64,000 nucleotides of DNA from a virus: positions 1-64,000 of IMG/VR virus record IMGVR_UViG_2667527875_000001; one strand, given 5' to 3'. Position numbers and translations under genes: made by a program. Under the pieces are notes generated by a model, which was given only the letters and a program-made list of their open reading frames with translations, made no database searches and was not told the origin of the DNA. Below are positions 60,491-64,000 of this stretch, one piece after another (positions within the stretch are counted from its first letter, which is position 1; the number at the start of each line of letters is the position of its first letter).

Positions 60491-61066
60491 CTAATCTACA
60501 TGCTGTATGTCTACACCAATATTTGACCGTAGTAGGTCGCCGATTGAATCAAATGCACTATAACTACTTCTGATAGCATCGGGATCACTTAAACAACTAG
60601 CAACAATGAGGCGAATTGTTTTAATACTATTGTCTTCCATAAGTATATTAAATGAATACTCCAGTCGCCGTAAATATACCCTAGACTTATTACCAGCTCC
60701 AGATACAGCGCCAACGATCGCACCAGCGCCACCGGCTAGTAACCCTCCGACTACTGCTCTTGAAATTGGGTGCCCATTACGAGACTCTTCATTGAGTCGC
60801 TCGATTGATTGGACATTAAACATATTATCGCTATTCATATTATGGTAATAATGACCATCTTTGGTAACAAATAGTAATCGTCGATTATTTGTGTCGAAGT
60901 ATACTTTACCATTATCCAAATAAAAACACGGTCCCGGATATTTCTTTTTAAATTCCCTGTCTTCTGTGGCATCAGTATCTGTATCTACGAACTTCACTAG
61001 AATAAAAACTACCCATGCTAAAATCACTCCTAGCACCACAATTATCTTAACTAACACTAGCCTCAC
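60491..61066 (-). CDS. membrane protein with glycine-zipper segment
   Basis: ORF track; N-terminal transmembrane helix; VVGGLLAGGAGAIVGAVSGAG. Confidence 0.6.
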   Translation of the reverse strand: MRLVLVKIIVVLGVILAWVVFILVKFVDTDTDATEDREFKKKYPGPCFYLDNGKVYFDTNNRRLLFVTKDGHYYHNMNSDNMFNVQSIERLNEESRNGHPISRAVVGGLLAGGAGAIVGAVSGAGNKSRVYLRRLEYSFNILMEDNSIKTIRLIVASCLSDPDAIRSSYSAFDSIGDLLRSNIGVDIQHVD

Positions 61067-61073
61067 CCCATTA

Positions 61074-61172
61074 TTAACTTAAATCGTTACCAAATATCCA
61101 AACTAAAATCGGGATCAGAAAGAAGAACAAACCAAACGATTTCCATACTGTCTCCCAAAATCCATAGTCCAT
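61074..61172 (-). CDS. small hydrophobic peptide (32 aa)
   Basis: Own translation MDYGFWETVWKSFGLFFFLIPILVWIFGNDLS. Confidence 0.3.
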   Translation of the reverse strand: MDYGFWETVWKSFGLFFFLIPILVWIFGNDLS

Positions 61173-61188
61173 AAGATCACACTTTCAT

Positions 61189-61290
61189 TTAGAGCATGGC
61201 GTCAATTATAAACAGGATAACTAACCATGCTAAAGCGGCTAATACAAACCCAATGAACGCAGCAAGCAATCCTAGAAATACTCCACCCAT
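61189..61290 (-). CDS. small hydrophobic peptide (33 aa)
   Basis: Own translation MGGVFLGLLAAFIGFVLAALAWLVILFIIDAML. Confidence 0.3.
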   Translation of the reverse strand: MGGVFLGLLAAFIGFVLAALAWLVILFIIDAML

Positions 61291-61383
61291 TCAAACCACC
61301 TTATTGTATGATATATCTAACATTTAGCATCACTTATAATACATATATCATGTGTATTAGATATATCATCTATATCAAATGTA

Positions 61384-61956
61384 TCATTTTTCTTGATCAA
61401 ACGACGCCAGATTAGCAAACTTAGCCCGTAATGAATCAACATCAAGGTTGTTTGGGTCAAACCCTTTAACGTCTTCTTCATCTCCGTTACCGCTATTATC
61501 TTCGGCTTTTTCTGTCGCTACTGGATCGTCATTTTCGACTTCCTGTTTAGTTTCATCGTCGTTTGATTCATTATCTACCTTAGTTGTGTCGACACTATCA
61601 GAACCATCATCTTCGATCTCATCGTGATCGCTCTCGTCTACTTCGTCTTTTACTGGTTCGTCATCAGTCGTCTTTTCGTCTTCAACCTTTGGCTTTGTTT
61701 TCTTACGTGACCGACGTTTCCGGGTTAATCCAGATGGTACATTTGCCCCATCTAGCACTGCTTCCCAGCCGACCAATTGTACAAAAGCATGGAAGTCAAT
61801 CGTCCCGTACGTAGCATCAATATACCGAATAATATCCCGAATTGATGCTGAAAACGATCCCTGCTTCTCGATCCATGCTGCAACGTCATCGTCCTTGGTG
61901 TACCGAAACGACTTATACATACCAGTAGTTTTTGATTTAGCTTTACGACGAGGCAT
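61384..61956 (-). CDS. ParR-like adaptor candidate (N-terminal RHH-like, acidic tail)
   Basis: Immediately downstream of the ParM-like gene. N-terminus KSFRYTKDDDVAAWIEKQGSFSASIRDIIRYI looks like strand-helix-helix; long D/E-rich C-terminus. Confidence 0.45.
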   Translation of the reverse strand: MPRRKAKSKTTGMYKSFRYTKDDDVAAWIEKQGSFSASIRDIIRYIDATYGTIDFHAFVQLVGWEAVLDGANVPSGLTRKRRSRKKTKPKVEDEKTTDDEPVKDEVDESDHDEIEDDGSDSVDTTKVDNESNDDETKQEVENDDPVATEKAEDNSGNGDEEDVKGFDPNNLDVDSLRAKFANLASFDQEK

Positions 61957-61985
61957 GATAGTTCTCCTTTCTCATTACCGATTTC

Positions 61986-63185
61986 CTATTTCTTATTGAT
62001 GATACTGTCGATCATTACCAACCCACGTTCATTGCAATATGGTGCGTCTTCTGCCGGAATAAAGATAACAAAAATGTCTTCACCACCAGTGAATTGACGC
62101 AGCTTTTCAGATAATTGTTCCCGCAAATCTGAGTATTGGCTCATTGGAATAGAAGCACCACCGTGTACCCATGCAACACTGACATCTGCTCCGGCTAAGT
62201 TCATCGCCTTGCTTACCGTCTTAACGATTTGCGGTACTTGTGGGCTAATTTGTTGTTTAACAATTTCTTCTACACGTGCCTTACGCTTACGGTCGAGTGG
62301 ACCAGCTGGACGTGCTAAGTAACTTTGCAGCTTAATACGGTCTTCAAAGAAGATCTTCTTAGCTTGAAGTGCAAGAATCGCATCTTCTAATACATAATCA
62401 TACCCTTGATTTGAAGACAACGAAGCGTTGAGCATTGGGTTACCGTCAATAACAGCCAAAACATCAGCGGTCTTGGAACCCAGGTCAAGGTGAATTGAGT
62501 TTGGCGCACTAATAAGGTCGTCGACAGAAATCTCTTTAGCGGCTTCCGGATAGTGTTCTTTGAAGTCTTGCCAAATTCCTTTCTTTAATGCACTGTCGGC
62601 GTTTTGAATATAGAAATGGGCTGGTTCACCTTCAAAATCAACGAATACGTTCTTGAAATTGATCTTGACTGTGATTGGGTCTACAAAGTTGTTGATCGTA
62701 ACAGTGTGCGACCGTCCAAGGTAGCGTTCCTTGTAACGTTTACGCGTCCCAGGTACCTTTGCTTCTGAAATCGGAAGTGCAGTAGTCATATCAACATCAA
62801 CCTTCAACGTTTCTGATAGGTCCTCCCCATCATTATGCGCTTCAACCACACGGTGACCAGCAATCAAACCAAGAGTAAGAATTACTGATAAGTCTGATTC
62901 TGACTTACCCTCGTAGTCATTAATGTCAAATCCAACTAAATTATTGGACTTGCGAACGGCTGCGTCACCAAAGTAGAACCGCCCACGTGTCGAAACAGCA
63001 GAACTAGCAACTGAAATATCGAGATTTTGAAGTAAGGTATCAAAATATCCATCATCTTCAATATCAGCTGGGTCAACAATATCTAATTCACGTACTGGAG
63101 CAATAACAGATGGCACTTCAAAGTGCTTACCATTAATCGTACCTTTGATCTTGCTATTACCTAAGTCATTACTTAATGAAATCAT
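61986..63185 (-). CDS. parM: ParM/StbA-family actin-like segregation ATPase
   Basis: N-terminus LSNDLGNSKIKG (phosphate 1), DLGSKTADV (phosphate 2), WVHGGAS (adenosine motif); about 400 aa. Confidence 0.7.
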   Translation of the reverse strand: MISLSNDLGNSKIKGTINGKHFEVPSVIAPVRELDIVDPADIEDDGYFDTLLQNLDISVASSAVSTRGRFYFGDAAVRKSNNLVGFDINDYEGKSESDLSVILTLGLIAGHRVVEAHNDGEDLSETLKVDVDMTTALPISEAKVPGTRKRYKERYLGRSHTVTINNFVDPITVKINFKNVFVDFEGEPAHFYIQNADSALKKGIWQDFKEHYPEAAKEISVDDLISAPNSIHLDLGSKTADVLAVIDGNPMLNASLSSNQGYDYVLEDAILALQAKKIFFEDRIKLQSYLARPAGPLDRKRKARVEEIVKQQISPQVPQIVKTVSKAMNLAGADVSVAWVHGGASIPMSQYSDLREQLSEKLRQFTGGEDIFVIFIPAEDAPYCNERGLVMIDSIINKK

Positions 63186-63261
63186 GTTAAATCCTCCTAA
63201 TTAACATACTACTAAACCTAAAATGTCATTCGCTATAATGCAAATATCATTTGTTATACAA

Positions 63262-63289
63262 ATAATACCACATTTCAAACATAAGTCAA
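63262..63289 (-). promoter_or_regulatory. promoter of the parM operon
   Basis: - strand TTGACT (63284-63289), 16 nt, TATTAT (63262-63267) with an upstream TG. Confidence 0.55.
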
Positions 63290-63310
63290 GCATTATTGTA
63301 TTAAGTGTAT

Positions 63311-63349
63311 CGTTTTGTAATACAATGTGATATATTGTATTACAAAACG
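63311..63349. promoter_or_regulatory. perfect 16-bp inverted repeat (parC/operator candidate)
   Basis: cgttttgtaatacaat-gtgatat-attgtattacaaaacg; extra half-site-like attgtatta at about 63293. Confidence 0.6.
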
Positions 63350-63743
63350 TGCAATGATGTTGATATATCAGCGATTCCATACCGTGGTTTATCGTTTATT
63401 ATGTACCGAACTATCAACTGAATCAGAAAATTAAAGTTTTGTTGACGATTACGGAAAAGTATGTAACAATTGAACCAAGACAACTGCGAAAAACAACGGA
63501 GCGTGTATAAAACTCTTTTGACTTTGTAATTGTCTTAACAAAATTAAAACTCCCAGGTATTGGCGTACCTGGGAGTTGACTAAAATTTAATTTTAAGGTT
63601 AGGCAACTAAACTAACACACACCTAACCTTTTATACCAATAAGGCTCTTCAAACCTGTACACATATTATAGCATATTAAGTGTACATAGTTAAAGCCTTA
63701 TTGGATATTTGTAAACCCTTTATTTAGGAAAGGAATGAAAAAT

Positions 63744-64000
63744 ATGCCAAGTAAGGCTTTTTTAGGTCTTAACGTAGACCTACTCAACAACCCAAAATAT
63801 GACGAAATCAAAATGGACGCACTGGTCTTATACTCACTGTACGCAGATCGCGCAGCATGTTCTAAGGCTAATTCCAACAACGGAAATAACAATTTCGTCG
63901 ATAAAAATGGTCGTCACTTCGTAATCTTTACAGACGATGAGGCATCTAAATTGATTCGCACGTCAACAAGAACTATTGCCAATTACCGTAAGAAACTTGC
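63744..64000 (+). CDS. repA: RepA_N-family replication initiator, 3' partial (runs off the window)
   Basis: Own translation MPSKAFLGLNVDLLNNPKYDEIKMDALVLYSLYADRAACSKANSNNGNNNFVDKNGRHFVIFTDDEASKLIRTSTRTIANYRKKL. Matches the RepA_N pattern (F..v...L..n..y..l....lLYsll.dR..lS..N...D..G..fi.ft..e...l.....ti....k.L). AAGGAA SD. Confidence 0.7.
   Translation, partial: MPSKAFLGLNVDLLNNPKYDEIKMDALVLYSLYADRAACSKANSNNGNNNFVDKNGRHFVIFTDDEASKLIRTSTRTIANYRKKL

Follow-up and report, generated by a model that had tools for sequence, protein, structure and literature searches.

The DNA analysed here, called the window, is the 64,000-nucleotide stretch covering positions 1-64,000 of the viral record IMGVR_UViG_2667527875_000001. 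The subject of this report is a replication and partition module at its right end, from 60.5 to 64 kb. A leftward string of genes encodes an actin-like ATPase (Alp), a small adaptor-type protein and a membrane protein, and this string is parted by a 558-bp spacer from the rightward gene repA, which encodes an initiator of the RepA_N family. The spacer contains repeats, promoter-like sites and palindromes. All the features that an earlier description made from the letters of this DNA (the first-pass annotation) listed for the region were recovered, either exactly in place or a few bases off. The coordinates of the module and of some other genes in the window are displayed in Table 1.

Table 1. 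Positions of the features discussed in the text, given as coordinates of the window. L010, L012 and L013 are relatives of the element.
Feature	Position	Strand	Basis or details
C5 cytosine methylase	4437-5321	+	
Thymidine kinase	5365-5949	+	
TnpB/IS605 OrfB	6522-7682	+	also in plasmid pLM1 of L. mucosae LM1, 43% identity
XRE-type helix-turn-helix + M78 (ImmA/IrrE-like) peptidase fusion, 367 aa	11721-12824	+	phrog_2439, E=5e-51
Deoxynucleoside kinase	22794-23513	-	
HNH/NUMOD4 endonuclease	26052-26750	-	3' end overlaps tRNA-Ile at the edge of a cluster of eight tRNAs (26.7-29.4 kb)
PnuC nicotinamide mononucleotide (NMN) transporter	30788-31549	-	
Terminator-like hairpin with T-run	60465-60484	-	8-bp stem with 4 GC pairs, tail TTTATTTTGC; directly 3' of the last leftward gene
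Membrane protein, 191 aa	60491-61066	-	N-terminal hydrophobic segment, glycine-zipper region
Hydrophobic small open reading frame (ORF), 33 codons, between the adaptor and membrane-protein genes	61189-61290	-	sequence; a 33-aa gene is called there in L010, L012 and L013
Adaptor in the ParR/Alp7R position, 190 aa	61384-61956	-	conserved after Alp genes
Actin-like segregation ATPase (alp), Alp7A/ParM superfamily, 399 aa	61986-63185	-	AlphaFold2 (AF2) model, Foldseek, motifs, PHROG
Centromere/operator candidate	63251-63345		inverted-repeat and motif search; TTGTA-N-TACAA 11-mers at 63251-63261, 63315-63325 and 63335-63345, half-site at 63296-63303
alp operon promoter-like site	63262-63289	-	TTGACT-16-TATTAT with TG; both hexamers invariant in the alignment
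repA promoter-like site	63442-63470	+	TTGACG-17-AACAAT with TG; leader ~270 nt; near-invariant in six relatives
Predicted counter-transcript, ~120 nt, antisense to the repA leader	63536-63662	-	short 5' hairpin, stem-loop 63595-63630, terminator 63548-63577 with U-run
Long imperfect palindrome that encloses the antisense promoter; immediately upstream of the repA ribosome-binding site	63636-63704		arms 63636-63646/63694-63704, inner 63647-63669/63673-63695
Counter-transcript promoter-like site	63665-63693	-	signal search; TTAACT-17-TATAAT with TG (extended -10)
Possible hairpin sequestering the ribosome-binding site	63705-63745	+	ATATTTGTAAACCCTTT pairs with AAAGGAATGAAAAATAT; 17 nt, 76% complementary
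repA 5' part, RepA_N initiator	63744-64000, runs off the window	+	Pfam RepA_N

The partition and replication genes

The AF2 model of the ATPase, built on an alignment of 11 homologues, reached a predicted local distance difference test score (pLDDT) of 91 and a predicted template modelling (TM) score of 0.88. When the model was compared with the PDB using Foldseek, the best match was Alp7A (5ec0, E=2e-19, TM-score 0.67-0.70). Further matches were ParM of B. thuringiensis (4xe7/4xho), ParM of pSK41 (3js6), Ta0583 and R1 ParM, all of them placed above the eukaryotic actins, and the E-values for the Alp7A and ParM structures range from 1e-19 to 1e-12. The phosphate and adenosine motifs for nucleotide binding (D7 G9 K14, D234 G236 T239, and G342 G343) are invariant in the 11 homologues, and the protein matches phrog_691, annotated as 'partition protein' (E=1.8e-23). 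It is 42-46% identical to 'ParM/StbA' proteins of Limosilactobacillus and Ligilactobacillus plasmids, and homologues at 43% identity adjoin genes for a coupling protein and for ParA on conjugative-plasmid contigs. Ten of the 11 homologues (26-65% identical) match the Pfam families ALP_N and MreB-like_C at E<=0.01 (best 1.3e-11 and 1.4e-12), and one member of the family matches Alp7A_like_C. A phmmer search of Alp against the PDB sequences gave chance matches only, and an NCBIfam search of all four proteins gave nothing. Judged by the model, the ATPase has an actin/ParM-like fold that is closest to Alp7A; an actin-like partition ATPase had been proposed for this gene, which holds, while the ParM/StbA type assigned to it in the first-pass annotation should be changed to Alp7A-like.

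The adaptor has a basic N-terminus followed by a conserved N-domain of ~50 residues (W28, Q32, G51, D54), a K/R patch, a long acidic linker and, at the C-terminus, a conserved amphipathic helix (residues 165-187). A word-based search with this protein found close relatives only. The basic N-terminus, the N-domain, the acidic linker and a short C-terminal motif are common to small proteins encoded after Alp genes in a 57%-identical phage clade (represented by L003), on conjugative-plasmid contigs and on L. reuteri pLr03. As far as can be read from the sequence, this domain plan appears to be that of ParR and Alp7R. The Alp7A-like fold, the PHROG match, the ALP_N domain in the homologues and the conserved adaptor-type gene together support the actin-type partition cassette that was suggested at the outset.

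Around the adaptor stop codon and just downstream of it there are ~5 tandem ATATATCAT-like 9-mers (61343-61387, 63% matches). All close relatives encode the 191-aa membrane protein on the downstream side of the cassette; its orthologues are assigned to PF27000 PH_gly_zipper in precomputed annotation, and it matches the unknown-function family phrog_888 (E=1.9e-11). The model put forward below does not need this protein. The terminator-like hairpin behind its gene is probably the end of the alp transcription unit.

Upstream of alp, exact matches to TTGTANTACAA occur only twice in the 64 kb, together with one match having a single mismatch, all of them within 95 bp upstream of alp. The second and third 11-mers make a perfect 16-bp inverted repeat (63311-63326/63334-63349), and the alp promoter-like site is both flanked and overlapped by the 11-mers; the promoter and the repeat at 63311-63349 had both been seen earlier. 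Across six related phage loci, whose repA varies at 271 of 1266 alignment columns, the 11-mer sites, the hairpins and both promoter hexamers change little or not at all. pLM1 contains repeats of 17 bp with a related core, TTGTATACA, of which four are upstream of parA and another three upstream of parM, and the L003 clade has a different and denser TTAGATTA-type array at the equivalent place. A cognate pair of adaptor and centromere would be expected to show such a picture, in which the arrays keep their place while the motif departs most in the clade that is more divergent. Repeated sites upstream of an operon that overlap its promoter define a type II centromere, and the candidate sites display this arrangement at the level of the sequence.

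When it comes to the initiator, the fragment of RepA encoded in the window matches Pfam RepA_N with 41.8 bits (E=1e-10), and the full protein with 37.2 bits, the cut-off being 30; the RepA_N initiator predicted from 63744 onwards is thus supported. The full gene is found on contig L011, which is 100% identical to positions 51986-64000 of the window. It encodes 420 aa, with RepA_N and DnaB_2 domains both above their cut-offs. RepA is 33-35% identical, over ~70% of its length, to the 'replication initiator protein A' of 10 or more Limosilactobacillus plasmids, and these closest relatives are, on their plasmids, the only initiators annotated. The module moves as a unit: the genes for RepA and ParM are divergent and 2-3 kb apart in pLr03, pLM1, CP065541 and LN906635, and the rep-par module is also present on plasmids with no portal match. 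The hexamers of the repA promoter-like site are invariant in six relatives, with one variable column in the spacer.

Approximately 1.5 kb to the right of the window end, at 7896-7939 of L011, three tandem 16-nt repeats (TAATATAACAA..) are located just upstream of the 263-aa ORF that follows repA. The gene after this ORF (226 aa) has a weak match to a phage sigma-factor PHROG and is itself followed by the HU gene. The order RepA, two genes, HU is also found in pLM1.

The origins of RepA_N replicons are usually found inside the rep gene. No DnaA boxes were found in the spacer between repA and alp. The genes diverge at this spacer (63.2-63.7 kb), where the minimum of the cumulative GC skew is also found, and genes diverging at a GC-skew minimum have likewise been reported for the plasmids pMP1046B and pI (PMC4165912, PMC4667477).

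The - strand of the repA leader is predicted to encode a counter-transcript. The 127-nt RNA folds with a minimum free energy of -40.2 kcal/mol (z=-4.3). Its terminator hairpin has a perfect stem of 12 bp (63548-63559/63566-63577), and the T-run is found on the - strand only, as had been noticed in the first-pass annotation. The internal stem-loop (arms 63595-63603/63622-63630) has a stem of 10 bp, and a G-U closing pair is present on the - strand only. In close relatives the stems are invariant and the loop is variable. Both variants of the region retain the antisense TATAAT, as do L003 and pLr03, and the same order of TATAAT, internal stem-loop and strong hairpin with U-run is found antisense to repA in the L003 clade, pLr03 and pLM1, with differing sequences. 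A counter-transcript ending upstream of repA, which had been suggested from the hairpin, gains support from this architecture conserved in four lineages; the predicted RNA would thus have a layout like that of RNAI from pSK41 in four diverged lineages. The three palindromes, first placed at 63551-63577, 63594-63629 and 63637-63704, were found at 63548-63577, 63595-63630 and 63636-63704. Rfam searches, of the whole window at the gathering threshold and of 55.7-64 kb at E<=1, gave only tRNAs and chance matches to miRNA and LOOT.

The third palindrome exists in two variants among the close relatives. One has CCAATAAGGCT/AGCCTTATTGG as outer arms together with a RepA starting with MPSK. In the other (L010, L012, L015), complementary outer arms AAATGATCTCCA/TGGAGATCATTT replace these and RepA starts with MSRR. 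The difference was considered as a possible case of covariation and rejected as such, since the arms are replaced and shifted by 5-6 columns, so that the change is not column-wise. The palindrome is kept while the sequence and register of its arms differ, and it could be an incompatibility or specificity determinant. Between the palindrome and repA, the possible sequestering hairpin covers AAAGGA and the start codon, and its cores CCCTTT and AAAGG are invariant.

Relatives and lifestyle of the element

Beyond the window, L011 encodes HU, a YonG_N protein, a terminase-like protein, a portal homologue and a YonD_N protein. Genes that are hallmarks of phages are thus found on one molecule with those for plasmid replication and partition. 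Genes with 61-64% identity to the portal homologue are present on plasmids from isolates that are complete, circular and non-mobilizable, namely L. mucosae LM1 pLM1 (108 kb) and L. reuteri CP065541 (133 kb), CP102426 (129 kb) and ATCC 53608 pI (138.5 kb). For a gene on L. salivarius pMP1046B (129 kb) the identity is 55%, and for those on elements of ~130 kb from Vagococcus, Bacillus and C. difficile it is 24-39%. RepA and Alp, at the identities given above, are also related to genes of circular plasmids, with the same order and orientation. From Alp up to the region of the deoxyribosyltransferase, the ORFs of the window and those of pLM1 are collinear (23-67% identity). The annotation of pLM1 comprises a full virion and lysis set (tape measure, holin, XhlA, a LysM protein that is likely to be the lysin, TerL and portal) as well as HU, RepA, ParA, ParM, a tyrosine integrase, DnaB, a PHP polymerase, primase and ligase; its annotated integrases are of the tyrosine type only, and no serine recombinase is annotated. 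The backbone is characterised by the YonD_N and YonG_N proteins and by a portal related to those of phiCD211 and Sundance. As seen from the sequences, the shared YonD_N/YonG_N domains probably signify a kinship with SPbeta-type phages of the virion genes only; Spbetavirus in the strict sense integrates by means of a large serine recombinase of the SprA type.

Two of these plasmids have been described in the literature. pI was shown by polymerase chain reaction to be circular and was interpreted as a megaplasmid that contains an incomplete prophage (PMC4667477), while pMP1046B was shown to be circular by pulsed-field gel electrophoresis and Southern blot and called a putative chromid (PMC4165912). 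A non-curated 'pLP39' community of phage-plasmids from Lactobacilli reaches 108.3 kb, which is the size of pLM1, and none of its members were tested experimentally (Pfeifer et al., PMC7969092). No study dedicated to pLM1 or to L. reuteri phage-plasmids was found in the literature.

The reading that we favour, with a probability of about 0.72, is that the region from 60.5 to 64 kb, extended rightwards by ~1 kb, forms the plasmid-maintenance module of a temperate siphophage of ~115-125 kb from gut Lactobacillaceae, and that this phage persists as a low-copy circular plasmid without integration. A prophage kept as a plasmid is most likely because close relatives have been deposited as circular "megaplasmids". 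The phage-plasmid lifestyle, posed as a question in the first-pass annotation, is indeed supported by collinear relatives that are complete circular plasmids in isolates. The exact Alp protein is found in 32 blocks of public assemblies, where its neighbours are diverged but intact, and none of these 32 blocks have a contig of more than 200 kb. This contig limit is only an indirect pointer to the extrachromosomal state of the element itself.

Several observations weigh against this reading. The extrachromosomal state of this element would have to be taken over from its relatives, and pattern scans of species-representative genomes and IMG/VR using the phage-clade Alp alignment found no confirmed relative of the phage-type Alp. 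A megablast search of 60400-64000 against the PLSDB plasmids and the INPHARED phages also gave no match. The ATPase of the window is below every Pfam and NCBIfam threshold, its best match being MreB-like_C (E=0.016, 16.2 bits with a cut-off of 27.8). Of the profile searches that had been proposed as a check, the one for RepA_N thus came out above the cut-off, and the one for ParM did not for the window protein, with 10 of the 11 homologues matching ALP_N. Since the window ATPase misses the profiles that its homologues match, its membership of the ALP_N/ParM-StbA family is transitive rather than direct.

The adaptor, on its part, has no Pfam match, and a profile of its N-domain found nothing in the PDB either. 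The AF2 model of this protein, a monomer built on a shallow alignment, is of low confidence (pLDDT 46), with helices predicted at 23-31, 39-50 and 173-187. When aligned with the ribbon-helix-helix (RHH) helices of pSK41 ParR using hhalign, it is in register, with a weak probability of only 4.7%. The protein was first described as having an RHH-like N-terminus and an acidic tail in the ParR position; the position and the acidic part stand, and the fold is unproven. There are also only three to four candidate binding sites, which is fewer than in R1 parC. RNAalifold run on seven close relatives found no compensatory pairs in the counter-transcript; there is no such evidence for the RNA because the stems do not vary among these relatives. 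The GC skew is confounded with gene orientation, and a repeat search found no iterons or Rep boxes inside repA, the central third of which has no patch of reduced variation. The origin may, however, lie elsewhere, so that the missing repeats do not exclude membership of the RepA_N family. Finally, RepA matches the phage family phrog_186, a DnaD-like helicase loader (E=1.8e-23), and could therefore serve lytic replication.

One alternative, which seems distinctly unlikely, is that the element is a megaplasmid or 'chromid' with a domesticated or defective prophage, using the module and no longer making infectious particles. This is how relatives have been interpreted, with the terms 'incomplete prophage' (PMC4667477) and 'putative chromid' (PMC4165912), and members of the Lactobacillus community have not been shown experimentally to be phage-plasmids (PMC7969092). 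However, such decay is at odds with the complete morphogenesis, packaging and lysis set that is kept in pLM1, and with a portal that is 55-64% identical across Limosilactobacillus and Ligilactobacillus and 24-39% identical out to elements of the same size in Vagococcus, Bacillus and Clostridioides, a conservation across genera that argues for selection on virion genes. The diverged but intact neighbours of the exact Alp protein in the 32 assembly blocks also speak against it, and the related elements of C. difficile are described as siphoviruses with measured capsids (PMC5786514).

It is very unlikely that the cassette serves the lytic cycle, with Alp and the adaptor positioning or organising replicating phage DNA, RepA acting as a replisome organiser and the prophage integrating by means of its tyrosine recombinase. 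AlpC/AlpA of the integrated C. glutamicum prophage CGP3 is a precedent that has been cited for parM of large C. difficile phages (PMC5786514), and both the presence of a tyrosine recombinase and the match of RepA to phage helicase loaders would agree with such a role, as would the genome's own DnaB helicase and other replication genes. Against this stands the finding that the nearest relatives of RepA and Alp are on plasmids, including plasmids with no portal homologue and conjugative contexts, and that RepA gave no tblastn match in 50,697 phage genomes. The collinear relatives are, moreover, circular plasmids in finished genomes (PMC4667477; PMC4165912), the exact Alp is not found on any contig above 200 kb among the 32 blocks, and a copy-control counter-transcript, as predicted here, fits steady-state maintenance better. 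It is still conceivable that RepA and Alp have a dual role in plasmid maintenance and in the lytic cycle.

A strictly lytic backbone was rejected on the XRE-M78 regulator, the recombinase, the toxin-antitoxin (TA) genes and the plasmid relatives. The module had been called unexpected beside replication and early genes that looked like those of a large lytic phage; the backbone lineage is, however, that of large temperate or plasmidial siphophages, for which parM and episomal maintenance have already been described (PMC5786514).

If the module does maintain the phage genome as a low-copy plasmid, it might work as follows. RepA, with a RepA_N winged-helix N-domain and a DnaB_2/DnaD-like domain, would open a theta origin located at repA or close to it and recruit the helicase-loading machinery, as judged from what is known of the family. 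A counter-transcript of ~120 nt would start from the promoter within the long palindrome and end at the 63548-63577 terminator. It would pair with the ~270-nt repA leader and favour the hairpin that hides this gene's ribosome-binding site, just like RNAI of pSK41. By analogy with ParMRC and Alp7ARC, the adaptor would bind the TTGTA-N-TACAA palindromes, thereby both repressing the operon and forming the centromere complex. Its C-terminal helix would then capture Alp filaments, which would push the sister copies apart.

A bolder proposal, which we regard as unlikely, is that one RepA_N replicon, held down by a pSK41-like counter-transcript, is used for plasmid maintenance at low copy number as well as for run-away replication in the lytic cycle of a phage of ~120 kb. 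The switch would be the loss of the antisense RNA or of repression by the adaptor, and Alp would be reused for replicating or packaging DNA. This would be the first antisense-controlled RepA_N family outside staphylococci, and several 'megaplasmids' or 'chromids' published from Lactobacillaceae would have to be re-classed as inducible phages.

Elements of this kind are already known, both as large plasmidial siphophages with parM and as computationally predicted phage-plasmids of Lactobacillus. What is modestly new is the link between the lineage and the published 'megaplasmids', the antisense control predicted for a RepA_N replicon from outside the staphylococci, and the gene-free promoter/RNA region adjoining the cassette. 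A probable maintenance module is thereby identified for a widespread and unstudied lineage of large phage-plasmids from gut lactobacilli. This lineage is linked to the well-known probiotic or model strains L. reuteri ATCC 53608, L. mucosae LM1 and L. salivarius JCM1046 through their 'megaplasmids' of 108-138 kb. If it is true that these are inducible phages, this bears on the safety and stability of the strains, on gene flow in the gut and on how plasmids and phages are counted. The module is compact (~3.5 kb) and could be the basis for stable low-copy vectors for Limosilactobacillus, and it offers a test of pSK41-type RNA control in RepA_N replicons of other genera.

Other genes and the gene-free stretch

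Of the two TA-like modules reported elsewhere in the window, a MazE-type antitoxin (9021-9242) and a YafQ-type toxin (47438-47704) were confirmed. Two tyrosine recombinases had also been claimed; one is located at 44403-45431, and the ORFs that were tested did not include another. DnaB- and RecD-type helicases are encoded as well. The XRE-M78 fusion is a candidate for the lysogeny switch. Its gene is situated where the genes on the + and - strands converge (12.8-13.2 kb), and this convergence is likely to mark the replication terminus. The deoxynucleoside kinase, the thymidine kinase and the PnuC transporter belong to a nucleotide and cofactor salvage set, and the same set has been called puzzling 'housekeeping' cargo of the L. 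reuteri megaplasmid pI (PMC4667477). The remaining genes in Table 1 encode TnpB, a methylase and an HNH/NUMOD4 endonuclease.

The ~4.5 kb to the left of the cassette (55800-60490) contain no ORF of at least 100 aa. The GC content reaches 0.48, and GC-rich hairpins are dense. No genes are called in it in any of the relatives either (L001, L010-L015, L003), and the corresponding gaps are 3.3 kb in pLM1 (52692-56042) and 2.3 kb in pLr03; in some relatives genes similar to ArdA or ArdC are found after the gap. Rfam gave no match in it beyond a sub-threshold LOOT. At 56310-57200 on the - strand a strong promoter unit (AAAAAAGTAGTTGACA, 17 nt, extended -10) with a GC hairpin behind it occurs in two near-identical copies, while L001 has four to five of them. 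Downstream of these units is a highly structured stretch of ~700 nt. The last ~200 nt of it (56320-56520) are almost invariant in seven relatives, while three of the seven have unrelated sequence in the middle. The region at 56310-57200 is possibly a set of abundant early non-coding RNAs.

The gene-free stretch also contains three DnaA-box-like 9-mers on the - strand (TTATCCACA, ATATCCACA and TTTTCCACA; 58689-58719) with a spacing of 11 bp. At least two of the three are kept in six of seven close relatives, and the cluster is absent from the 57%-identical clade and from pLM1. These 9-mers are what the proposed DnaA-box region consists of, and the number of boxes in the window as a whole does not exceed chance (14 with 20 expected).

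Comparison with known systems

The closest systems are the Lactobacillaceae megaplasmids pLM1, pI and pMP1046B. They have the same order of virion genes, TerL, HU, two small genes, RepA, (ParA) and ParM with a small protein, which continues with a gene-free stretch of several kb, early genes, tyrosine recombinase, replisome genes, PnuC, deoxynucleoside kinase and tRNAs (PMC4667477). The portal is 55-64% identical. At protein identities of 23-67%, the present element is a different species of element. pLM1 and pLr03 contain an extra ParA-type system between RepA and ParM, which the phage of the window does not have.

The C. difficile phages phiCD5763, phiCD2955 and phiCD211/phiCDIF1296T have a homologous portal (24-28% identity). 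Their genomes of ~130 kb are circular and extrachromosomal and contain, besides a parM-like gene, a tyrosine recombinase, TA genes and a replisome of their own (PMC5786514). The kinship is, however, distant and the host family another, and their parM belongs to a regulatory module in terminal position that includes a LuxR-type regulator. A description of their initiator was not found in PMC5786514 with the terms 'RepA' and 'replication initiat'.

With P1 and N15, to which the first-pass annotation had likened the element, only the concept of the lifestyle is shared, that is, a temperate phage with plasmid replication, partition, TA genes and a recombinase for multimer resolution. P1 and N15 have partition systems of the ParA/SopA type (type I) and other initiators, and N15 is linear. 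No homology to either of them was seen, and the element is unrelated.

The Alp7A/Alp7R/alp7C system of pLS20 from B. subtilis has the same operon order, with repeats and promoter followed by the actin and a small putative DNA-binding protein. The ATPase is 18% identical to Alp7A over the structural alignment, and the repeat array is shorter here. The adaptor has no detectable similarity to known families.

In pSK41 from S. aureus, an actin-type ATPase followed by a small adaptor (parM-parR, with centromere repeats) likewise adjoins a RepA_N initiator, and pSK41 ParM is among the best structural matches of Alp. The sequence similarity is negligible, the par and rep genes are divergent here and co-oriented in pSK41, and RepA is a 420-aa protein with DnaB_2, with no Rep boxes found inside the gene. 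Such RNA control has not been seen in RepA_N plasmids outside staphylococci (PMC5703833). The predicted counter-transcript resembles RNAI of pSK41 (PMC5703833) in having two stem-loops and a target ~85-205 nt upstream of the start codon, and an alternative hairpin over the ribosome-binding site is available in both. While pSK41 is a conjugative plasmid, the replicon that hosts the module described here is a phage genome.

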